A DNA stretch of 64,000 bases from Pachysolen tannophilus NRRL Y-2460 (Eukaryota). How positions within the stretch are numbered: position 1 is the stretch's first letter; each line of letters begins with the position of its first letter. Below are positions 13,024-59,623 of the stretch, piece after piece. A model generated the notes under the pieces. That model did not search any database, was not told the DNA's origin, and was given only the letters and a program-made list of their open reading frames with translations. The stretch is from positions 2,344,987 to 2,408,986 of the forward strand of contig KV454011.1 of NCBI GenBank assembly GCA_001661245.1, read 5' to 3'. Position numbers and translations under genes: made by a program.

Positions 13024-13573
13024 NNNNNNNNNNNNNNNNNNNNNNNNNNNNNNNNNNNNNNNNNNNNNNNNNNNNNNNNNNNNNNNNNNNNNNNNNNNNN
13101 NNNNNNNNNNNNNNNNNNNNNNNNNNNNNNNNNNNNNNNNNNNNNNNNNNNNNNNNNNNNNNNNNNNNNNNNNNNNNNNNNNNNNNNNNNNNNNNNNNNN
13201 NNNNNNNNNNNNNNNNNNNNNNNNNNNNNNNNNNNNNNNNNNNNNNNNNNNNNNNNNNNNNNNNNNNNNNNNNNNNNNNNNNNNNNNNNNNNNNNNNNNN
13301 NNNNNNNNNNNNNNNNNNNNNNNNNNNNNNNNNNNNNNNNNNNNNNNNNNNNNNNNNNNNNNNNNNNNNNNNNNNNNNNNNNNNNNNNNNNNNNNNNNNN
13401 NNNNNNNNNNNNNNNNNNNNNNNNNNNNNNNNNNNNNNNNNNNNNNNNNNNNNNNNNNNNNNNNNNNNNNNNNNNNNNNNNNNNNNNNNNNNNNNNNNNN
13501 NNNNNNNNNNNNNNNNNNNNNNNNNNNNNNNNNNNNNNNNNNNNNNNNNNNNNNNNNNNNNNNNNNNNNNNNN
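13024..13573. other. Assembly gap (550 N)
   Basis: Run of n flanked by long poly-T/poly-A tracts. Confidence 1.
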
Positions 13574-26400: not shown

Positions 26401-26939
26401 CTTTCTATTTGACTTTTGACCAGTGAATTTTAAAACATGATGACCAATAAAACAAAAAAGAAAAAAAAAACCCCCCGAAATTAAAAAATTAAATTAAGAA
26501 TCAATTAACCGCTGATAGAATTAACTTAATTAAAAAATAAATATCTATTTTATTATAATCAAAATAGTTCAAATAACATAAATAGCCCTTAATCAGATTT
26601 AAGAGATGAGCAAGATGACACCTTTTATATAAATATATAATTATGTTTTTGTGTTAATATATAAAAAATATGATTATGATTTACACACGTGTAAACCGCC
26701 GTTTCAATATAACCAATACGATATTAATATATTTAAATAAAAATATATATCTCGTTTATATGATTATTAACATATTCAAATTATAACCAAAAAATTAAGG
26801 AAAACCTTTGGTCGTGTGAATATGAAACAAAAAAAATTAATAAAATTAACAAAAATTAAAATTATTTTCTATTAAATTTAGCGCTTAATGAGTTTTATAA
26901 TAAGTTTTTAAAAGTTGTATTTATGTATGAACAAGCAAT

Positions 26940-27385
26940 ATGTCATTTTTCTTGAATCAAAAGTTATTTGGGAATGATGAGGTTGATCTGGAAAAGGTTA
27001 AGCTAGCGGAAGTGCAGTTTGAAGCTATGTCGACCACTTTTAATACGTGAGTATGAAAAAAGTAGAAAAAGAATAATAATAATTTTAATTAGGGTATATT
27101 TATTAAGTTTCAAATTTACTAATTGAAAAGAATTTTTTTTTTTTTTTTTTTTTTTGGTATTTGTTTAGGATGTTAAAAGTTTGTAGGGAGAAATGTATTC
27201 CACATGAATATGGTGAAAGTGAACTTAATAAGGGAGAAAGTGTATGTGTAGATCGGTGTGTTTTAAAATATATGGAGACAAATTTAAAAATTGGACAGTA
27301 TGCTCAATCTGTGAGGCTAGATGCAAAAGATTTAAATTTTCATGAATATTTAAAATCAAAATATACTGAAAAAAAGAAAGAATAA
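26940..27385 (+). CDS. TIM12: Small Tim chaperone Tim12; exons 26940-27046 and 27169-27385
   Basis: MSFFLN...VQFEAMSTTFN, twin CX3C (CREKC, CVDRC); intron GTGAGT / TACTAAT / TAG; adjacent to NHP6. Confidence 0.9.
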
Positions 27386-27849
27386 ATTATTAATTGATTT
27401 AAATTTTTTTTATAAAAAATTTTTTCATAAAATTAAAAGAAAATGGAAACTGTATATATATAGATTATGAATATAAGCAATTTGGTTTAATTTGGTTTAA
27501 TATGATTTCAATTTTAGTTACAAAAAAAATAATATTAATAATATACAAAAAAAAGTTATTGAAGCATATTTCAAAAAAAACATAATGGTTGTTAATACCA
27601 TTAGAAAAAAGAGAAATAAAAAAGATAAAATCACTTCACATATATAAAAGAAAATATAGCTATAAAGAAAAGCAAAAAAACAACAAAAATAAAAATAAAA
27701 GAAAAGAAAAAATAAGAAAATAATAATCAAAAAAAAAAAAAAAAAGAAAAAACCCACTCACAACGAATAAAACAAACAAACAAAAAAATTATCTATTTTT
27801 CTTTTATTTCGATTAGAATTCCAATCCTTAGATTTTAAAATTCAATCAT

Positions 27850-28217
27850 CTATTGTTGTTGAGTTTTCAAGTATTCAGCTTTTTCTAATTCGTATCTTTT
27901 CTTATCAGCTTCAGCCTTATCTTCAAAAGGTTTCTTTTGATCATCAGAAAGAGCCTTCCATCTTTCACCCAAGACCTTACCAACTTGACCAAAGGCAATA
28001 CCTGGGTTCTCAGCACGGACTATATCACGAGTCTCGTTTGCAAAGAACATGTAAGCGGACAATGATCTCTTTGGAGCATTTGGATCTTTAAAAAAAAAAA
28101 AAAGAGAAAAATTTTTTTTCTGTTAGTAACAAGTTCATTTCTTTAAACTTGATATAGAATTTTTCATTTATACATACCCTTCTTCTTCTTTTGTGTTCTT
28201 GATCTTCTTTCAGCCAT
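27850..28217 (-). CDS. NHP6: HMG-box protein Nhp6; exons 28217-28178 and 28085-27850 (91 aa)
   Basis: [22 protein letters not shown] restored by intron 28086-28177 (GTATGT / TACTAAC / AAG). Confidence 0.93.
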
Positions 28218-29572
28218 TTTGGAAATAATTAAGCTAATTGAATTGTTAGTATAATAATTATAATATACTAATAATATAATACAATTTACTAAATAAACAA
28301 GAAAACAGTATATTATTTGTTTTTCTTTTTTTTGGGGGGGAGGACAAGAACCGTACATTAAATAAACATAGAGAGAAACCCAACTGTTTATTTGTTTATG
28401 GGAAAAAACGCGTACTGGGGGAGAAAACCAAAGAAACTCGTGTTTTTCTCAATCTCAATGAGGGAAAAAAGTATCGGGCCACTACCCGTGCTCATACTAG
28501 CGCAGTACTCGAAATTTCCCTGTTTAATTGGTAAATCATTCTGTCATATGAAAAAAAAAAAGTAGTCATTTCAAAGGGCGTGCATGCACTTACTATCGGT
28601 TTTGGTACTTTCCGGCACTACTTGTTAAAATTTTGCTCTCTCTTGGTAAAACCAGCTGACACACAAACTTTCTCTCTCTCTTTCTCTCAAAGGGGAAAAA
28701 AACAAAGATAGCCAGAACAAATTAAAATTTCCATTGAAAGAAAGTAGAAAAAAAAAAAAATAGGTTGAAAACCCATACAATATGGGAACAAAACTGGTTT
28801 CATCAAAAAAAAAAATAAATGAGAGGAATTAAAAAAAAAATTTTTTCCTTTCTTTCTTTCAAGAATTAACCATGTTCCAAGTATCGTATTGTGTAATCAA
28901 TCTTATTAAAAAAAAAGTAGAGTATTGTATTAAAAAACAAACCAATTATGAGTACGATAAACCGATAGTAAAGTAACAGCGCTAACTCATGAAATAAATT
29001 TATAACTTTAAATGAAGTTAAATTTTTAATAAATTAAACGGGGTCTCTCTTCCAAAATGATTGATATTCTTGTAATCCATCTTGTTTTCAATTGTAAATG
29101 TATTATATTGTGCATAAATTATTTTTAAAAAAAAAATTTTTTTTTTTTTTTCAAGCTATTATGAACTTTTTACTTACTATGTAAAAATTTAGTATGGTAA
29201 AATATTACTCTCTTTATTAATTTTTACTATGATATTAATTTTTATATAGGTGAAATTTAATATGAGAGGAAAAACCTGTATTTAAGGAAGGAAATTAAGG
29301 AGGTTTCGCTAATTATTTAAAAAAATTAAATTGCGCCTGACTTGTTGACCCGTGGCTGGCTTTTTCTGCTTAGAAAAAAAAAAACCAAAAAAGAAAAAAT
29401 CTGTCATTTAAACAAAAACCCAAAACAAAACAAAACACGTTGTGTTTACTTACACTACCTTTCTGGGGTTTTTTATTTTTTTTTTTTTTTTTTATCTTAC
29501 ATAATTTTTCGCTCTATTATAATTTTTATTCCTTTTTTCAGTATATGGTAATAATAGTAATAATAAACTGTA

Positions 29573-30462
29573 ATGATTAGTACTGGTACTAATGATGTAT
29601 TTTTCAACAAACTAACGAATGAAGATGATATAGATGAACATATTTTTCAGATATACTCAGAGTCTGGTCTGGTTTTCGAAAATAGAGGGTTGGGTTTTAT
29701 TTCAAAAGATGTATTTGTTCAAATCGAATTACATAATGGTGATGAATTGATAATTGAACAATCAATAACTTGTCTTTCTGGTAAGGAATCTAGTTCTACA
29801 GGGTTTCTGCTGTGGAAAGTAAGTCCACTTTTTGCAGAGTGGTTGTTGTATCATAAGAATCAGCCATTTCAAGCATTATTTTCACAAATTGATTCAAAAA
29901 ATATTTTAGAATTAGGTTCTGGAGTATCTGGGATATTAGCATCAACAATTGGGAAAAAATGTAATCATTTTATAGCTACAGATCAACGTCATATTTTAAA
30001 ACTTTTGAAAAAAAACATTTTAAATAATGTTGATCATTTTAAATCAACTACTATTGATAAAAATATTACAAATAATAGTAGTAATCAAAGTTTTTCTAAA
30101 TTAAATAAAATTAACAAAAAAAAATTAAACCTATAATAGACGTTGTGGAATTCGATTGGGAAAATTTAGAACAAGGAATATATAATACTCACCATTTACT
30201 GTTGGAAAATTCTATTGATTTAATACTTGCATGTGATACCATATATAACGAATATTTAATACCCTTTTTCATAAATTCAGTACTGAAATTGGCAACTGAA
30301 AATACAATAATCTTAATTGCTATCCATCTAAGAGACTGCGAAATTGTTGAATCTTTCTTAAAGTCAAGTCTACCAATATTTGACTGCTACAATGTGAAAA
30401 ATGAGTTTTTAACATCTGATTTACAAAAAGGTTATTCCATTTATTATTTCAAGAAAAAATGA
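29573..30462 (+). CDS. RKM5: Protein lysine methyltransferase Rkm5-like (frameshift at A9 run 30116-30124)
   Basis: STGFLLWK, ILELGSGVSG, ATDQ in first frame; EFDWE, ILACDTIYNEYLI in second; one extra A joins them. Confidence 0.75.
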
Positions 30463-38603: not shown

Positions 38604-38705
38604 ATAGATTTTTTAAATAAAAGTATACTTGATGATTATATATATATATTAAAAAAAATAACTATATAATAAAAATTTTAGAAATAGATCTTATATAATA
38701 ATATA

Positions 38706-40195
38706 ATGGAAGAAATATCAGTAGAAGAGACCAATAGGTTACGTATTCAATTAGGGTTAAATCCTATACCGACACCCATTAATAGTAATAATAATAAAAA
38801 TAATAATTTTTTGGTAAATGATAAGTTGAATAATGATGATGAAAAAAATGATCTTGATGATGATGATGAATGGTTGAGTAAATTATCTTCAACAAAATCA
38901 GGAAAAGTGCCTGAGAATAAATCAAATGATGATAAGCTGGAAAATATTAAAGTAGGTCATAGTTTGAAAGATGTTGCTAAATTAAAGGATGGTGAAGTTT
39001 TCACTTTAAAGGATAAATCGATATTATCTGATGAAGATGAATTAATATCTGAATCTTTAGTAGAGAAAAAGAAAGTTCAAGATACTTTGAAGCTGAAATT
39101 GGGTAGACTGAAGTATAGTGGATTTGATGATGATCAATATGAAGGAGAAAATAATGGGAAAGATGATGAGATTGAAGAAGGATCATTTGTATTAAATGGC
39201 GATATAGCAGTTGATAATAAAACTCAAATTGAAACAAAAAAATCTTTACAGAAACAATTGAACAAAAAAAATTATTGGAATTAGCACTGTCTGATGATGA
39301 AGATGATAATGAAGATGAGGAAGAATTAAATGATTACCATACAGCAAAACCAATCAAAATTAAAAAACATAAGGTCAATAAAAAAAGTGTATCGAGAAAG
39401 AGAAAATTAGAACTGGACTTGGACTTGGACTTGGACTTGAAACAAGAACAAGAACAAGAACAAGAAGAAAAGGATAAAGTTCCACAGAAAGTTTTGTTGA
39501 ACAATGAGGATGAAGGAGACATAGTTGATGATGATGAATTACAAGCTTTGTTGTCATTACAGAGAAAGAAACTGCAGAAAAACAACAAGAACATTCAAAT
39601 AAAACGTGAAAAGTTTTCATCTTTCTCCAAAGAAGCAACTTCGCCAAAGAAAGAAGAGCAAGAGTATGGGTTGGTTATTGATGAAAATAGTTTGTTTTTA
39701 GATAACATCAGAGCCAAGATGGAAGAACCAGTAATTGTCAAGACTGAACCCCTGCAAGCACAAATTCCGCCTACCACTTCGACATCCACTCCCACTACCA
39801 TTTCCCCTCCAACCCCATCAAGTTTAACTTTACCGGAAGTCAAACCAGAAACAGAGTACTTTGGCTCAGGTTTAGCATCTACTTTGAAATTATTGAAAAA
39901 CACAAATGAACAAGATAAAAAACTTTCAATGAATCAAAGAACTTTTAATCAGAAACGTGATCTATTGAGAATAAGCAGAGAAACAACTAGTTCTACAAAT
40001 ACAAATACAAATACAAATACAACTGACCCAAAATTATCAAAAGAACAAGAAGATTTATTAAACCACCACTATAACCCAAAGATCAACTTAAAATACTATG
40101 ACGATAAGGGCAACATACTCAAGACCCCAAAGGAAGTATACAAATACATGTCCCACCAATTCCACGGAAACGGAGGCGCGAAGTCTAAAAAATAA
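38706..40195 (+). CDS. SNU66: U4/U6.U5 tri-snRNP protein Snu66/SART1 (frameshift near A8 run 39264-39271)
   Basis: HIND motif ISVEETNRLRIQLGLNPI, FTLKDKSIL; second frame YNPKINLKYYDDKG...KEVYKYMSHQFHG. Confidence 0.85.
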
Positions 40196-43605: not shown

Positions 43606-46600
43606 CTATGCTTCAACTGGATAGCTTCGTAAATCCAAAGTAACGGTCTTAGAGCTGTTTTCCTCTTGATCTCTGAATATTCCAATTAAAGCATCACTTT
43701 TTTCAAATAATGAATTTTTCAAACTGATAACTATGAATTGGAGATGCTCATTACTATTATTAACAATATAATTTGTCAACTTATTTACATTAGCGTTATC
43801 CAATGCTGCATCAACTTCATCCAAAACAAAGAAAGGAGAAGGATGAAAAGAATGTATGGCAAATAATAAGGCCAAAGCTGCAATAGTTTTTTCTCCACCT
43901 GATAATAACTCCATATCTCTAAATCTCTTCATAGGTGGCATTGCATGGTATTTAATTCCAGCAAGGTATGGTTCATCTTCATCTTCTAAAGTTAAATATG
44001 CAGATCCACCACCTCCCAAAGGTGATATTACTGAATTTGTCCTAGTCAATTCTTTATATATGCTATCAATGTGAGAAGAAATATGTTCAAAAGCTTGATT
44101 AAATAACAGATATCTTTTTTCCTTAACTTCATTAAAATGGTTCATTAACTCCATTTCATCTTTCTTAAATCTCTTAAATTCACCATCAACATCTTTGGAT
44201 TTAATCTCCACTTCTTTCAATCTCTCAACAGCCTTGATATTTGGTGAAAGTGAATCTAACTCATCATTAATTTTACTTAATTCTTCAGCAATTTTATCAG
44301 CGAGTTCTGAATTTTGCTTATAAGTTGAAGATAAAGAATTGAAGTTAACCGCTATACTTCTCAACAAATGTGTTAAATCTTCTTGTACGGCAGCGCGATC
44401 CACTGGTAAATCCTCTAAAGAACCCGATAACAATGGGATATTAATATTTTCAATTTTACAATTCTTTAAAATTTCAAATTTCTGACTTATTTCTTCTTCC
44501 ATATCAGCTTCAAGAATAGCTATTTCGTTAGTAACACCATCCTTATCATGTCTTAAATCTTCGACTTTTTCCTGTAACAGCTTATTGGATTTCAATTTGT
44601 TGTTAGATATAGATTCCATCTTCTTGAGTTCATCATTCAATACTTCAACTTCACTTTCTAATAAGTCCACATTAGACTCGACTTCTGACTTTTTCTTGTT
44701 TAAACTCTCTAATACCAGGTCATTTTTTTGTTTTTCAGTTTTCATTTTCAGCAATCTACTTTGAGACTCTTGCAATCTTTCACTTTCAAAATTCAATTTA
44801 TTTTCCAAAGTAGAAATTTGTTTCAAAAATCTGGATTTTTCTTTCATAATTTTTCTTAATTTTGAACCATTATTCAGTTCATAATCCTCAATTGAATCAA
44901 ACCCGTATTTGTTACAAAAATCTGAATAGAAATCAGCTTTCATACTATTAATTTTACCTTCAATTTGTTCAACTTTTGTATTTAAATCATTTAACTCTGA
45001 TTCTGACTTTTTCAAAAATTCATCATTTCTCGTTAAACTTTCTTCTTGAACTTTCAGGTGAGACTTTTTATCATTCAATTCCCTTTCTAGTTGCAATCTA
45101 TTAGATCTTGAGGCCTGTAATTCTAATTCAAGCTCGTCAATATCATCTAGAAGTTTCTTTTCGAGTAAAGAATTAGGACCTTTGCGTTCCAATTCTTCAA
45201 GTTGTTTCTGTAAATCTAGCTTAACCGAAGTTAAACTGTTAATATCTTCTTTATTAAATTTTCTATTATCGTGTTCAGTACGACCACCAGTCATTAACCC
45301 TGATTTATGAATTAATGAACCATCAAGTGTTACAACTTTGACGTCGATGTTTCTCTCCCATCTGATGTATCTTGCTACATCAATGGTATCACATACCATT
45401 GTATTAGAACAACAGTACTGTATTGCTCTCTCCAATGAGAAATCAAATTCTACTACGTCTAATACTGGTCTTGCTTGCTCGTGAACATTTCTCAAATAAG
45501 ACTGTGGTGGTTTGGATTCAACTGAATCAAGAGGAATAAAAGCTGCCACCCCGGCTCTTTGGTCCTTTAAATATTCAATACATTTTGTAGCAGTACTTGC
45601 AGTATCTACAATAATAGCATCAAAGTGCTTTCCAAGAGTTGTAGCAACTGCAAGTTCATATTTCTTTTGTTTTGGACGGCAAAGATCATGAACAAGGCCA
45701 ATAACTCCTTCTGGGTACATTCTTCTCAATTTAGCGGTATTTTCTCTTAATTTCTTTTCTCTTTGTGTTTCTTTCTTCTCAGCATTAATGTTATTGATTG
45801 TTTCCAAGACGGTCCTAAGTTTCTTTTGGATTGTCCAAGTTTCTTGAACATTTTTCTCTTTTGAGATTTTAAAATCATTCAACTCCTTCTTTTTTGTGTT
45901 CAAATTCTCTAAAGTATCGTTTAATTTTGAGTTTGAATCACTTAAACTTTGTGATAATCTTTCAATATCATTATTCAAATCTGCCACCATTTTTTCAATT
46001 AACTTTCTTTGTTCATTATAACTGCTAATTTTCTGTTCTGTGCGTTCTTTTTGATTACTTAATTCCGACAATTCATCATCAAGAGAATTGTCTGCGAACA
46101 TTTTATTTTTAATTTCCATATATTCGTTAAAGATTTCTTCATTGTTATTATTTGTGTTACCACTGCCACCACTTCCTTCATTGATTGAATTCAAAAAAGT
46201 TTCTTTGGCATCAGTAACAATTTCAAGTTGTTGTTTGATATCATCATGAATCAGTTGTTGGTTGGAGATATTTCTAGTAATTTCATCGATTCTCTTTTTA
46301 TATTCTGATACTTTTTTCAAAACTATTGATTTTTCAGTATCAAATGGAATTAATTCACGTTTTGTATCTTCTAAAGTTTTAACTTTCTTATTAATTTTTG
46401 AACGAATCTTATTTAATGCAATTTGATCTTTTGAAAATTGAGCATTTGCTGTTTTAAAATTATTTTCTTCTTTTTTCAACATTTCTTTTAATTTTTTCAA
46501 ATCTGTACTTTTAACTTGTAAAGTTTTCAATAATAAATCATATTTCTTTTCATGATGATACAATTGATAAATTTTTTGTAAAATAATTAAATCATTCTTT

Positions 46601-47298
46601 TCAATTAATTTTTTTTCAAAAATTTCAGCTTCAACAGTTTCCTGTTTATATTGTTTAAATTCAGCATTAATATTTCTCCTTGTTGAAAACAATTTCTTTG
46701 TCTGCTCGTTGATATTTTCTACTTGTTCTTTCAATTCATTATATTCATGAATATATTTCGAACTACCACTAACAACTTCAATAATTTTTGTTAATTCCAA
46801 TGGAGCTGAAATTTTTTGAACATCTCCTTGGAAAACTAAACAATTTTTAGTCTTGTTTAAAATATTTTCATTTTTCAAAATATCCGAATACTCAGCAGCA
46901 GATACAATTCTATCGTTGATTCTATATTCACTATTACCATTTGAAGTTATTTCTCTTTTCAATTTTAAAATCTCACCATCAGATTTTTCATAAATACACA
47001 TAACATAAGCTCTAGACAGTTTCTTATTACCATCATCATGATCATCATCATCATCATCACCCTGCTGCTCTGAATCTTGTCTATTTCTAACACCTCTATA
47101 AATTAAATCCTTAAGATTGTGCGATCTCAAATTACTCGTCTTAATACCAAGAACAAAAGAAATAGCATCCATCATATTTGATTTACCTGAACCATTTGGA
47201 CCAATAATACTCGTAAAGAAAGTAGTACCAAATCCAATAGATGTGGTTCCCTTATACGATTTAAAGTTATGTAACTCTAAACCAACCAATCTCCCCAT
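43606..47298 (-). CDS. SMC1: Cohesin subunit Smc1
   Basis: MGRLVGLELHNFKSY, GPNGSGKSNMMDAISFVLG, PPMKRFRDMELLSGGEK, FVLDEVDAALD. Confidence 0.97.
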   Translation of the reverse strand: MGRLVGLELHNFKSYKGTTSIGFGTTFFTSIIGPNGSGKSNMMDAISFVLGIKTSNLRSHNLKDLIYRGVRNRQDSEQQGDDDDDDHDDGNKKLSRAYVMCIYEKSDGEILKLKREITSNGNSEYRINDRIVSAAEYSDILKNENILNKTKNCLVFQGDVQKISAPLELTKIIEVVSGSSKYIHEYNELKEQVENINEQTKKLFSTRRNINAEFKQYKQETVEAEIFEKKLIEKNDLIILQKIYQLYHHEKKYDLLLKTLQVKSTDLKKLKEMLKKEENNFKTANAQFSKDQIALNKIRSKINKKVKTLEDTKRELIPFDTEKSIVLKKVSEYKKRIDEITRNISNQQLIHDDIKQQLEIVTDAKETFLNSINEGSGGSGNTNNNNEEIFNEYMEIKNKMFADNSLDDELSELSNQKERTEQKISSYNEQRKLIEKMVADLNNDIERLSQSLSDSNSKLNDTLENLNTKKKELNDFKISKEKNVQETWTIQKKLRTVLETINNINAEKKETQREKKLRENTAKLRRMYPEGVIGLVHDLCRPKQKKYELAVATTLGKHFDAIIVDTASTATKCIEYLKDQRAGVAAFIPLDSVESKPPQSYLRNVHEQARPVLDVVEFDFSLERAIQYCCSNTMVCDTIDVARYIRWERNIDVKVVTLDGSLIHKSGLMTGGRTEHDNRKFNKEDINSLTSVKLDLQKQLEELERKGPNSLLEKKLLDDIDELELELQASRSNRLQLERELNDKKSHLKVQEESLTRNDEFLKKSESELNDLNTKVEQIEGKINSMKADFYSDFCNKYGFDSIEDYELNNGSKLRKIMKEKSRFLKQISTLENKLNFESERLQESQSRLLKMKTEKQKNDLVLESLNKKKSEVESNVDLLESEVEVLNDELKKMESISNNKLKSNKLLQEKVEDLRHDKDGVTNEIAILEADMEEEISQKFEILKNCKIENINIPLLSGSLEDLPVDRAAVQEDLTHLLRSIAVNFNSLSSTYKQNSELADKIAEELSKINDELDSLSPNIKAVERLKEVEIKSKDVDGEFKRFKKDEMELMNHFNEVKEKRYLLFNQAFEHISSHIDSIYKELTRTNSVISPLGGGGSAYLTLEDEDEPYLAGIKYHAMPPMKRFRDMELLSGGEKTIAALALLFAIHSFHPSPFFVLDEVDAALDNANVNKLTNYIVNNSNEHLQFIVISLKNSLFEKSDALIGIFRDQEENSSKTVTLDLRSYPVEA

Positions 47299-47404
47299 CT
47301 TTCTGTTCAAATAATCATACAAAAAATATTTAAATATATCTATTATATTATTATTAGATTATTCTTTTGTTTTATATTTTCATTTTTACAAATATTATCA
47401 AGAG

Positions 47405-47668: not shown

Positions 47669-48652
47669 TTAAGCATCTTTAACAGCAGCTTCGTGTAATT
47701 TTGCGTATCTACCTGATGGATCTTCATGACAACCCCAGTCGGCCTTTGGAATCCATCTCATGACAGTGGAAGCAGCAGCAGGTTGTGGGAACAACTCATC
47801 AAACATACATCTGTACCAGTAAGCTTCCTTTGTTGTTGGAATATCTGAACCCCAGTGTGGTTTTGGATTTTTCAATTGTTCATCTGAGATCAATCTTTCT
47901 GCTTCATCTTTTAAGCCATCAATCCATGAGTAACCAACCCCATCAGAAAATTGTTCTTTTTGTCTCCATAAGATTTCTTCTGGTAAATATGGTTTAACAG
48001 TTGGATCATCACTTGTATCAAATGCTTTTCTTAAAATATATTTTTCAATTCTCTTTTCTTGAGGTTTAATTAATTTTTCATTTGGATCAATGTTCATACA
48101 AACTTCCAAGAATTTTTTATCCAAAAATGGAACTCTTGCTTCTAATCCCCATGCCATTGTTGATTTATTGGCTCTTAAACAATCAGCCAAATGTAAGTTT
48201 TTAACTCTTTTAACACATTCAGTATGGAATTCATTAGCAGATGGAGCAGATCCAAAATACAAGTATCCACCAAAGATTTCATCTGAACCTTCACCAGATA
48301 AAACCATCTTTACACCTTGAGCTTTAATTTTTCTTGAAAGTAAATACATTGGAGTTGAAGCTCTAATAGTGGTAACATCATATGTTTCCAAATGATAGAT
48401 AACATCACGTAATGCATCTAAACCATCTTCTAATGTAAATGTATGTTCATGATGAATAGTTCCAATGAATTTTGCAACTTTTCTTGCAGCAATTAAATCT
48501 GGAGCACCAGGAAGTCCTATAGCAAAAGAATGTAATTTTGACCATCCATTTAGTATTAATTTACCATCATCATCAACTCCAGTTAAAGTATGAGTTGCAT
48601 CAACACTATCTTGATTTTGAGCAGATTCAGTTACAGAACATTCTGGTGTAAA
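47669..48652 (-). CDS. ASN1: Asparagine synthetase, C-terminal half (no own start codon)
   Basis: Open frame from 48652: (F)TPECS...[17 protein letters not shown]...[16 protein letters not shown]...SGEGSDE...[12 protein letters not shown]...EDPSGR. Confidence 0.9.
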
Positions 48653-48692
48653 TCACAGGCTTGATTACATAATAATTTTTTCTTTTTATATT

Positions 48693-48699
48693 TGACTCA
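48693..48699 (+). promoter_or_regulatory. Gcn4 site TGACTCA in the ASN1 promoter
   Basis: Perfect Gcn4 consensus about 225 bp upstream of the ASN1 ATG. Confidence 0.65.
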
Positions 48700-48923
48700 T
48701 TTTCGCTGTGTGAAATTTTTTTTTTTTCTTTTTTTTTCAGGTGAAGGTAGATTTGGACTATTTTTCAAAAGGTTATATTGAATAATAATATATATTTAAT
48801 AAGTAATTTAAGGTGAAAGGTATAAGGTATTATATATCTTTTATAGAATTTATTTTATTCACTGATATTTCATTTATAAAAGAACTAGTTTTCTTTTTTT
48901 ATCTTTATTTTTCAGTGTTATAA

Positions 48924-49709
48924 ATGTGTGGTATTTTTGCTGCTTTTAGGCAGCCAGATGTTGAAGAGTTTAAATCAAAAGCTTTACAATATTCCAAGAG
49001 AATTAGACATAGAGGTCCAGATTGGTCAGGTAACATTACTTTGAACTCTACTATTTTGTGTCATGAGAGATTAGCTATTGTTGGTTTAGATGCTGGTGCG
49101 CAGCCAATAACATCTAAGGATGGAGAATTAGCACTTACTGTTAATGGTGAGATTTATAATCATATTCAATTAAGAGAACAATTTAGTTCTTATCCATTTA
49201 AGAGTTTATCAGATTGTGAAACTATTATTCCATTATACCAGAAATATGATATTGATGCTCCAAAACATTTGGATGGTATGTTTGCATTTGTTTTATATGA
49301 TAAAAAACAAGATCGTATTATTGCAGCTAGAGATCCAATAGGTATTACAACTTTATATATGGGTAAAAATTCAAAAAAATCACAAACTGTTTATTTTGCA
49401 TCTGAATTAAAATGTCTTGTTGATGAATGTGATGAAATTATTGCATTTCCACCGGGTCATGTATATGATTCAAAAACTGATAAGTTGACTCGTTATTTCC
49501 AACCAACTTGGTGGGATGAAAATAAGATACCATCACAACCAGTTGATTATAAACTTGTAAGAGAAACTTTAGAAATGGCTGTTAGAAAAAGATTAATGGC
49601 TGAAGTTCCATATGGTGTATTATTATCAGGTGGTTTAGATTCTTCTTTAATTGCTTCTATTGCTGCAAGAGAAACTCTTAAAGCTGCTAATTACACGGTT
49701 ATGAATTAA
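48924..49709 (+). CDS. ASN1: Asparagine synthetase, N-terminal half (Ntn glutaminase plus start of synthetase domain)
   Basis: [46 protein letters not shown], then a premature stop. Confidence 0.92.
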
Positions 49710-49768
49710 TAACGACGACAACAACAACATGATAATAATAATAATAATAATAATATTATACCTATAAG

Positions 49769-49796
49769 TGACTCACTGTTGATAAGGATATGAGTC
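49769..49796. promoter_or_regulatory. Gcn4 sites (TGACTCA 49769-49775; TGAGTC 49791-49796) stranded beyond the inversion
   Basis: Consensus sites in what is now a 3'-3' gap; they would lie in the ASN1 promoter if the segment were re-inverted. Confidence 0.55.
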
Positions 49797-49954
49797 TTTC
49801 ATCCTGAAACATAAAAGAAAAAAGAAAAAAGTAAAAAGTAAAAAAAAATTTCATTATAAAAACCTACCAGTACCATCCATCATCATTAACCAAAAGAAAA
49901 GAAAAGAAAAGTTAAAAAAAAAAACCTAAAAACCGTCATATGCTTTATGCTCTA

Positions 49955-51136
49955 TCATTTCGCCGTTATAGTTGTCATTGTATCGGTGTTTGTGTTGGTG
50001 TCATGAACTATTACTAGTTTTTTTGTGGCATCATCAACTTGAATGCTTGGAATACTATTATCGTGTAAATGCAGTTGTTGAATTTGGTCTTTTCCTTGTT
50101 CTTGCAGTTCTCTTTGCCTTTTATTTTTAATAGATCCACCACTAAATAATATATCACCAATTTTTCTAAACCACAAGAACCTATTTATTCTGGAAAATTT
50201 ATCTAACCCCATACCATAATTATCATAAGCTTGTTTTAAATCTGATTGTGACAGTCCATGAATATCATTTCTAATAAGAAAATTTGCTTGATTCAGTTCA
50301 TTAGCATTAAATAATTGTAAACCAGTTGAAATAGATGCAATTGCAATTATTCCAATTAAAATTTGATACTTATTTTTTTCAAAATTTTCTTTATTAAATT
50401 CATTATTTTTATTATTTTTCATATTTTGAAAATCTTCCCAAGTACCTGCATAATAATAATTATGTTCTTTAAAATCTTGACCTGATTGGAAACTTGTTCT
50501 ATTTGAAGCAAAAGGTGAAGAATTTGGATAACCTCTTGAATAAGATGACATGTTGTTGGTAGAATTATTCGGATTTTTCGGTGGTGACTTCCATCCAATG
50601 TTATGATTATCATAAAGAGATTTTTTAGAAGGATTTTTCAACAATTGGTACGCACTTAATACAGTCTTGAATCTTTCACTTAATAACTCCGGCGTGTATT
50701 CTTTTAATTCTTTCTTCAATTCATTATTGATCGTATTACCTTCCTCCCGTGGCAGTTCCAATTCCAGTTGCAGTGGCAGTTGAAATTTCAAATGATTAGA
50801 ATCTGGATGGTAAAGCTTGGCAAATTTATAAAACAGTTTTTTCAATAACACAGGATCAAACTCGCTAGGACTAATATTAAACACCTCATATGGCGTAGGA
50901 TACAATTTCTTTGGCCATGCTTTTAAAAGTCTTAAATGTTCACGTTCGCGTTCCCGTTCACGTTCCCGTTCATGATTAACACTACCATTATCACCACCAT
51001 TATTGCAACTATTGCTATCAATACTATGAGCAAACCTATTTTGAATTAAAAATGGCCGATACATTCCAAAAAAATTAACTAGTCCATGACCATTCCCATG
51101 TCCATGACCATGACTTATCTGTCTTTTTGGAAACAT
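49955..51136 (-). CDS. JID1: Mitochondrial J-domain protein Jid1-like
   Basis: WPKKLYPTPYEVF, AKLYHPD, ERFKTVLSAYQLL, AGTWEDF, RINRFLWFR; near ARO7/YMC1. Confidence 0.8.
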   Translation of the reverse strand: MFPKRQISHGHGHGNGHGLVNFFGMYRPFLIQNRFAHSIDSNSCNNGGDNGSVNHEREREREREREHLRLLKAWPKKLYPTPYEVFNISPSEFDPVLLKKLFYKFAKLYHPDSNHLKFQLPLQLELELPREEGNTINNELKKELKEYTPELLSERFKTVLSAYQLLKNPSKKSLYDNHNIGWKSPPKNPNNSTNNMSSYSRGYPNSSPFASNRTSFQSGQDFKEHNYYYAGTWEDFQNMKNNKNNEFNKENFEKNKYQILIGIIAIASISTGLQLFNANELNQANFLIRNDIHGLSQSDLKQAYDNYGMGLDKFSRINRFLWFRKIGDILFSGGSIKNKRQRELQEQGKDQIQQLHLHDNSIPSIQVDDATKKLVIVHDTNTNTDTMTTITAK

Positions 51137-51271
51137 CTTCAACAAAATCCAAAACTAAACAAAATAACAATTATTAAAAATCTAGTATAATTTGGGTCAT
51201 ATCTTGACCCAAATTATACCGATATACCATATTTTTTAGTTTGTCTTTTAACTGCACTACCTTTTTGTTTT

Positions 51272-54005: not shown

Positions 54006-54119
54006 TATATTTTCTAGCTTTGTGTTAAAAGGTAAATTAATAATTGTTATTTTATATTTGTAAGGCAAATAGTAAACACAACAACAAGAAAGAAAGAAAA
54101 AAAAAAGTTAGCTTTTAAA

Positions 54120-54201
54120 CGTCACAGACAGGATTCGAACCTGCGCATGCAGAGCACAACGCCTTAGCAGGGCGTCGCCTTAACCACTCGGCCACTGGGA
54201 C
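54120..54201 (-). tRNA. tRNA-Ser(GCU), intronless
   Basis: Reverse complement GTCCCAGTGGCCGAGTGGTTAAGGCGACGCCCT-GCT-AAGGCGTT...long variable arm...GGTTCGAATCCTGTCTGTGACG. Confidence 0.95.
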
Positions 54202-54643
54202 GAACAAAACGGCTCTTTTGCTCTCAATTCTCTTCATATACTGTAATATATTATTCTGTATTCTATATTCTTTTTTGGTTGTACAGAAGGACGGAGATAA
54301 AAACGAGAAAGACAGATTCCTCCTGTTTTAATTCAAGCTTATCTAAATCCCAATCCCAATTTCAATCATGATCCCATTTATTCAAACTAAAATTTAAAAT
54401 TAGAAAAGAATTAGAAATTATAATATTTGTATCTTTCTCTTTTTTTCTTTTGTTGTTTCGATGTGTTATCTAACTTTGAATTTGATTTCAACGGCCAAAA
54501 ACAGAAGTAAAAGTATAGGAAGAAAAAAATAAACCATAGAAAAAATATATACATATATATTTATATATAAATATACATAATTCAGTAGTAGAAAAGAGAA
54601 TCTTGTTGGGAACGATTTATAATCTTTAAGGAAAGAGTTGAGT

Positions 54644-57754: not shown

Positions 57755-58405
57755 TAATAACAAATTAAAAATTCTGTTTTATGTTTCTTTTTTTCTCTTT
57801 TTTCTTTGCTTTGTTTTGTTTTGGTGTCATTTTGTTGTTTTTTTTTCTTGATGTTTAATTTTTGGTTGTTTATATACATATATATATATGTATATATATA
57901 TATATTTGGTTGGTATTAATGTTCATTCTCTATTGCCTAGTATTTTGTTTTGTTTTTTTGTTTTTTCTTGCAGTTGTTTCATTACTTCATGGGCTCCATC
58001 TGCTTTCAACAGGTTGTGCTATATACATATATACAGATAAATATATAAATATCATGTTTTATCGTCTTCTTCTCTCAAAATCAGTTAATAACTTTTAAAT
58101 GTGAGTCTCTGCGGCGCTAAATAAAAATCGAAGAGGACAAAAAAAAAACTTACCGCCGCACGATGTAGGTGCATACTTTTATCACTTTATACATATTTTT
58201 GCAATGTAATCTTTGTGTAACACATTTGATTACTGGTATTATGATGGATTTGACAGGAATTGGAATGATTATATAGTTTTAGTTTGTTTTTTTTTTAAAA
58301 GTATTTATTTCACAGTTTCTTTTCCATTCTTGAGAGCTTTTTTTCCATAAGAAAAAAATAATAGTAATAAGCATTTATTTTTTTTTTCTTCAAAAGAGTA
58401 TAAAG

Positions 58406-59623
58406 ATGGAGTCTTTTAATCATTCATCAGATCAATTGCTAGGAAGTAACAAACCTAATTATGTTGTTTATGATAAGGCCAATTTTTATATTGATTCAAG
58501 GTATCAAGTTCAGCATGTTTTGGGAAAGGGATCTTATGGAACGGTATGTTCAGCTGTGGATTTGAAATCTAGAGAAAATGTACCATTGGCAATTAAAAAA
58601 GTTTCTGATATTTTCACAAAAGAAGTTTTGTTGAAAAGAGCTTTGAGAGAATTAAAACTTATGAGATATTTTAAAGGACACAAGAATGTAAGGATTTAAC
58701 TTTGATATATACTTTTATTTATTTTTTTATGAAAAACTAACAATTGTTGCCTTTAGATAATTAATTTACTTGATTTAGATATCATTTATATTAAACCATA
58801 TGATGGTTTATATTGTTTCCAAGAATTAATTGATTATGATTTAGCAAGAGTTATTCATTCTTCTGTTCAATTTTCAGAATTTCATATTCAAAATTTTTTT
58901 TATCAAATTTTATGTGGTTTAAAATATATTCATTCAGCTGATGTTATTCATAGAGATTTAAAACCAGGAAATATTTTAGTTACAATTCAAGGAACTTTAA
59001 AAATTTGTGATTTTGGATTAGCTAGAGGAATTAATACCAAGTTCATAACAAAAGGATCAAAGGCAAGTCAAATTACAAATTATGTTGCTACAAGATGGTA
59101 TAGAGCACCAGAATTAATTCTTTCTCGTAAAAATTATTCAAAAGCTGTTGATATGTGGGCAGTTGGTTGTATATTGGCAGAATTATATGGACGTAGACCA
59201 CTTTTTGCAGGTAATGATCTGGTTCATCAAATTACTGAAATTGTTAAAGTTTTAGGTAGTCCATCTAAAGGCCTTGTTGATCGGTTTTCTTCAAAAATGG
59301 CTTTTGATTTTTTTGGACCACCAAAACCTCAATATAGAGCAATTTCTTGGGATCATATATATCCTTTTGCCTCTTGTGATGCTCATGCATTAATGACTAA
59401 TTTACTTTGTTGGGATGCTGAAAAAAGATATAATGTTGAACGTTGTCTTCAAGATATATTTGTTTCAAAATGTAGAGATTTAAACAATGAACCATCATGT
59501 GCAAGGCCTTTTGATTTTAGTTTTGAAAATCAAATTGAAAGTATGAACGATTTAAAAAAATTGTTACATGAAGAAGTAGAGAGTTTTAAAAGTGATCGCA
59601 TTAATTTTGGTAAAAAGTTGTAA
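58406..59623 (+). CDS. SMK1: Sporulation MAP kinase Smk1; exons 58406-58687 and 58757-59623
   Basis: [23 protein letters not shown] activation loop ([14 protein letters not shown]); intron 58688-58756 (GTAAGG / AACTAAC / TAG). Confidence 0.9.

Follow-up and report, generated by a model that had tools for sequence, protein, structure and literature searches.

The closest described counterparts of the gene examined here are the asparagine synthetases Asn1 and Asn2 of yeast and AsnB of Escherichia coli (PDB 1ct9). The locus in Pachysolen tannophilus NRRL Y-2460 differs from all three in that its coding sequence is present as two pieces on opposite strands. Gene arrangements governed by DNA inversion are described in yeasts. 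In the flip/flop mating-type systems of P. tannophilus, Ogataea polymorpha and Komagataella phaffii, the orientation of a segment decides gene expression, a trait in which they resemble the locus studied here; the sections of PMC6692504 that treat these systems give flanking inverted repeats of about 2 kb and inversions of 8-138 kb. The same sections describe the MAT inversion of P. tannophilus itself as a recombination between 2-kb inverted repeats that is inducible by nitrogen depletion. The ASN locus is unlike these systems, since it carries only a chance-level 6-bp repeat and its coding sequence is broken. Local inversion misassemblies in draft genomes offer a further comparison. With them the locus shares the disruption of a conserved and otherwise flawless gene by a small balanced flip, as well as assembly gaps and homopolymer frame errors. 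Such misassemblies usually occur at gaps or repeats, whereas the ASN junctions lie at neither. Here, we describe the two-part gene and conclude that a genetic switch is a less likely origin than a fault of the assembly or a knockout mutation of very recent date.

Results

The window, i.e., the whole stretch of 64,000 nucleotides that was analysed (assembly GCA_001661245.1, contig KV454011.1, positions 2,344,987 to 2,408,986), contains an ASN1/AsnB-type glutamine-hydrolysing asparagine synthetase gene in two pieces that face each other head to head on opposite strands (Table 1). The original prediction had described two intact, divergent halves, and both ORF ends that it gave, 48924-49709 on the forward strand and 47669 for the C-part on the reverse strand, agree with our coordinates. 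Pfam searches assign GATase_7 (1.9e-38), GATase_6 (5.5e-30) and profile positions 2-46 of the Asn_synthase domain (PF00733) to the N-part, and the rest of that domain (1e-68) to the C-part. A complete Asn_synthase domain on one polypeptide is absent from the locus as written and appears only after an in silico flip. In the N-part, a cysteine follows directly after the initiator methionine (MCGIF), inside the class II glutamine amidotransferase domain, and the SGGLDSS sequence at the start of the synthetase domain, which we take to be the PP-loop motif, aligns with all 45 yeast orthologues used for comparison. In alignments with E. coli AsnB, the N-part covers residues 3-248 and the C-part residues 263-551; the best full-length yeast relatives among the matches listed share 84% identity with the N-part and up to 86% with the C-part. 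P. tannophilus reads CUG as alanine. Both ASN parts (47669-49709) are devoid of CTG codons, so their reading is independent of this reassignment.

Table 1. Features of the two-part ASN locus and its neighbours, in positions of the window
Feature	Position	Strand	Description
SMC-family gene, one neighbour of the locus	43606-47358	-	ORF and Pfam
C-part open frame	48652 down to 47669	-	327 codons, begins F-TPECS
C-part by homology	47669..48631	-	320 codons, TESAQ... to end; rest of synthetase domain; TAA stop 47669-47671
TGA, then seven open codons FTPECSV	48632..48655	-	TGA at 48655-48653; surplus relative to the relatives' loop; no start codon
GTGTAA	48646..48651		reverse complement of TTACAC 49691-49696
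Spacer from which both parts diverge	48653..48923		271 bp; TGACTCA 48693-48699; T12 and T9 runs
N-part ORF	48924-49709	+	261 aa, starts MCGIF, closed by stop
N-part by homology	48924..49688	+	codons 1-255; GATase domain, synthetase start, SGGLDSS; homology ends ...ETLKAA
Six codons NYTVMN and TAA past the N-part	49689..49709	+	no counterpart in relatives if joined by homology
N-part stop to stop of DnaJ-domain gene	49710..49954		TGACTCA 49769-49775
DnaJ-domain gene, other neighbour of the locus	49955-51154	-	ORF and Pfam
Flipped segment, homology placement	48632..49688		1057 bp, 1 bp microhomology, 575 aa
Flipped segment, originally predicted placement	48650-49694		1045 bp, 2 bp microhomology, 583 aa

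Both parts have public counterparts. Except for a 33-nt model intron, the N-part is identical to NCBI protein P0121 (250 aa), which bears the label Pachysolen tannophilus NRRL Y-2460; the C-part corresponds to a public 319-aa model that starts with ESAQ and lacks a methionine. The P0121 model excises the 33 bases at 48969-49001 (+) as a GT..AG intron. Most of the 11 residues lost in this way match the consensus of the 45 orthologues, and the intron looks like a gene-model error. The exact 261-aa N-part is not in the protein collection. Among the matches listed, there was no near-identical full-length allele (the best reached 84%) and no Logan-derived copy of either part. A second asparagine synthetase labelled as Pachysolen was likewise missing from the 120 matches listed in each of three protein searches, an absence that weakly suggests that ASN is single-copy in Pachysolen. 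Metagenome scans with two unchanged window stretches, one beside each junction, gave 0 matches.

The sequence of the two parts is pristine. Aligned against 45 yeast orthologues of full length, they agree at all 238 invariant columns and at 321 of the 322 in which conservation is at least 95%; when the orthologues themselves were treated in the same way in a leave-one-out control, the median number of mismatches was 0 and the maximum 8. The ASN halves are without any decay, as had been claimed.

The capacity of the locus to make the enzyme is a separate matter. Directly upstream of the C-part lies an in-frame TGA, and an in-frame ATG does not occur until codon 102, at 48349. A search upstream of the C-part for 5' splice-site and branch-point motifs was negative, which bears out the earlier description of a C-half without an ATG until 48349 and without splice signals. 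As these signals are absent, the idea that an intron, or an exon further upstream, supplies the C-part was rejected. The N-part reading, in turn, stops after the PP-loop region. Since the C-part has a stop upstream, lacks an ATG in its first 101 codons and shows no intron signals, the locus as written cannot make the enzyme. These observations also weigh against a working split enzyme, whose two chains would be read outward from the shared 271-bp spacer and would combine into a functional synthetase. In favour of that reading, the most variable loop is where the gene is broken, and a cut there might be tolerated; the parts are also arranged head to head with a TGACTCA between them. However, such an enzyme would need a C-part polypeptide, and besides the TGA, the late ATG and the missing intron signals, the first 40 C-part codons offer a single near-cognate codon (ATA, codon 33). 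Moreover, the best relatives among the matches listed are all single chains (564-639 aa, about 575 aa). The split form was not seen in relatives, and the sole near-identical short form listed is the gene model of the same strain. We consider a functional split synthetase scarcely credible.

Reversal of the segment between the two junctions restores a single gene. Flipping 48632-49688 yields a 575-aa ORF that is collinear with the relatives and whose variable loop has the same length as in the closest of them (P0001, P0007, P0054 and P0101). The flip of 48650-49694 put forward in the original prediction does give the expected 583-aa ORF, but its breakpoints are not specific. That join counts as coding the first two (NY) of the six codons past 49688. 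In it, the final four N-half residues take the same alignment positions as the start of the aligned C-half and four more C-half residues are unplaced, which leaves 8 surplus residues. Among the flips tested around both junctions, 238/960 gave an ORF of >500 aa, so an in-frame result does not fix the breakpoints. Judged by alignment to the relatives, the homology placement at 48632/49688 is favoured over 48650/49694; the 21 bases on each side of the homology join are then noncoding, with frames open by chance. As predicted, the break lies in a variable loop, the most variable of the protein, between AsnB residues 248 and 263. This loop makes up only a few percent of the ASN gene.

We found nothing at the ends of the segment that could account for its reversal by recombination. 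The 6-bp inverted repeat that had been noticed there is present, GTGTAA and TTACAC being exact reverse complements, but its proposed role as a segment end does not withstand comparison with the remainder of the window: when 3000 random position pairs 1045 bp apart were searched within +-20 bp, 1147 of them showed an inverted match at least 6 bp long. The repeat is thus no better than chance. A flip symmetric about it does not place the gene in frame, just as the prediction had anticipated for a crossover within the repeat, and it was rejected as a recombination site on both grounds. No repeat of >6 bp occurs at the junctions, and such longer inverted matches as exist in the vicinity consist of low-complexity A/T runs with no more than 82% complementarity, lying asymmetrically and away from the ends. 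The ends are therefore without anything able to drive recombination. The closest tRNA gene is a tRNA-Ser(GCT) at 54119-54202 (-), and a tRNA-associated breakpoint was rejected as well.

The nature of the ends bears on the ON/OFF switch that the original prediction entertained. By analogy with the flip/flop mating-type inversion, a programmed reversible inversion might turn asparagine synthesis on and off. One orientation would be the intact gene and the other the dead gene, and the species is described in the relevant sections of PMC6692504 as inverting an 8-kb MAT region under nitrogen depletion. However, the MAT inversion has 2-kb repeats, whereas the ASN segment has a 6-bp match at chance level, recombination at which is out of frame, and the A/T runs nearby provide no symmetrical substitute. 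In addition, Pfam detected 0 recombinase families among the 32 ORFs scanned (3 ORFs matched no family), a count to be read in light of the fact that yeast flip/flop systems use general recombination. A programmed switch is therefore highly improbable. We attach equally little probability to the reading that the only ASN gene is truly turned on and off by inverting back and forth through a mechanism without need for long inverted repeats.

The flip also rearranges the putative regulatory region. Exact TGACTCA sites at 48693 and 49769 flank the right junction, in line with two of the Gcn4 sites predicted earlier; a third, at 49791, has no exact match to TGASTCA. In the whole window there are 5 exact TGACTCA motifs versus 8.35 expected, and 3/5 lie around the ASN gene. 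The 271-bp spacer is the proximal promoter that moved with the N-part, and the stretch between the N-part stop and the DnaJ-domain gene would be the distal ASN promoter once the segment is flipped back. The position of these motifs would fit a promoter under general amino-acid control that was cut in two by the flip.

The window shows further signs of draft quality. Its sole N run is a scaffold gap of 550 N at 13024-13573, flanked by long T and A homopolymers, and two conserved genes are frame-broken at A-runs. The first, a Methyltransf_16 (lysine methyltransferase) gene at 29567-30459 (+), is read in two overlapping frames that cover profile positions 12-98 and 100-168, with the frame change at an A9 run (about 30116-30124). 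The second, a SART-1/Snu66-like gene at 38688-40192 (+), is likewise read in two overlapping frames (profile positions 70-200 and 206-574); it contains A7 and A8 runs at 39236-39271 and breaks at the A8 run, at about 39263. Both splits are probably homopolymer-length errors. A published table gives an assembly of the strain as scaffold-level, with a contig N50 in the 10^4 class.

Two other features of the window stand apart from these. A protein kinase domain at 58334-59620 (+) is distributed over two ORFs (profile positions 1-60 and 70-262), and the 60 bases that separate them probably represent a short intron. About 3 kb at 26494-29566, with a large ankyrin/RCC1/BTB gene on one side and the methyltransferase gene on the other, hold no ORF of 110 aa or more and no Rfam match.

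Sequencing runs from two studies (X1-X4 from P1 and X5 from P2) each contain 0.96 of 405 words sampled from the stretch, a share that cannot tell the orientation of the segment, as junction-spanning words are only about 1.5% of those sampled. The stretch has five homopolymers at least 9 bases long, and these alone could account for the missing 4%. The runs listed as containing the stretch include no RNA data set.

Discussion

The locus is one ordinary ASN1/AsnB-type gene of which about 1.05 kb, namely codons 1 to 255-257 together with the 271 bp of promoter next to them, stands reversed in the assembly; the geometry of the original prediction is thereby supported. Two accounts of this reversal merit serious consideration. 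In the first, it would be a local assembly or finishing error, with a flip that is not the state of the living genome, and to this we give about an even chance. In the second, a real and very recent two-break inversion in the sequenced DNA would have knocked out the ASN gene before any decay set in, which we judge a serious possibility at somewhat below even odds. Such an inversion would need either to be confined to the sequenced clone or stock or, if fixed in the strain, to be accompanied by a second ASN gene elsewhere.

Much of the evidence is compatible with both accounts. The pristine state of the two parts and the balanced flip that restores a protein collinear with the relatives are expected of an artefact, yet the absence of decay fits recency equally well, and a balanced segment whose reversal restores the gene is also what a real inversion would leave. 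The structure of the junctions argues for an event in the sequenced DNA. Both lie inside a gap-free stretch of >50 kb, free of Ns, and have no repeat of >6 bp able to mislead an assembler; unless reads spanned the junctions, neither an overlap nor a k-mer assembler would be expected to reverse the segment. Real end-joining typically leaves 1-2 bp of microhomology, and the homology placement shows 1 bp and the originally predicted placement 2 bp.

Physiology points the other way. The methods of PMC3610204 describe cultures of strain CBS4044 in yeast nitrogen base lacking amino acids, and CBS4044 equals NRRL Y-2460 according to the title of Liu et al. 2012, a reference in that paper. A strain with its only ASN gene broken is predicted to be an asparagine auxotroph and should not grow without amino acids, yet this stock of the strain does; on the other side, the prototrophy evidence comes from another stock than the one sequenced. 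The lack of a second Pachysolen-labelled synthetase among the matches listed speaks weakly for an artefact and weakly against an inversion compensated by another gene. Similarly, the word share of 0.96 in the runs of both studies gives no sign of a difference between samples, which is weak evidence against an inversion private to one clone. The draft quality of the window, with its gap and two genes broken at A9 and A8 runs, adds to the case for an error, as does the published scaffold-level listing of an assembly of the strain. Taken together, growth without asparagine, the absence of a second ASN gene from the matches seen and an error-prone assembly make it most likely that the flip is not the state of the living genome. 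We therefore lean to an assembly artefact over a real recent inversion, and the warning in the original prediction that a misassembly was plausible holds good. In the literature on the P. tannophilus assembly, inversion, strain and auxotrophy that we searched, nothing on the ASN locus was found.

Neither an assembly error nor a plain loss-of-function inversion is new in kind. If the flip is an artefact, the result is a correction only: the public 250-aa and 319-aa fragment proteins should be one 575-aa synthetase, and metabolic reconstructions built on the fragment models would wrongly predict asparagine auxotrophy. If the inversion is real, it would be of wide interest only under the unlikely reading as a switch and otherwise of local interest for users of the strain, to whom it would offer a clean natural or laboratory ASN knockout allele in the type strain of a xylose-fermenting yeast.
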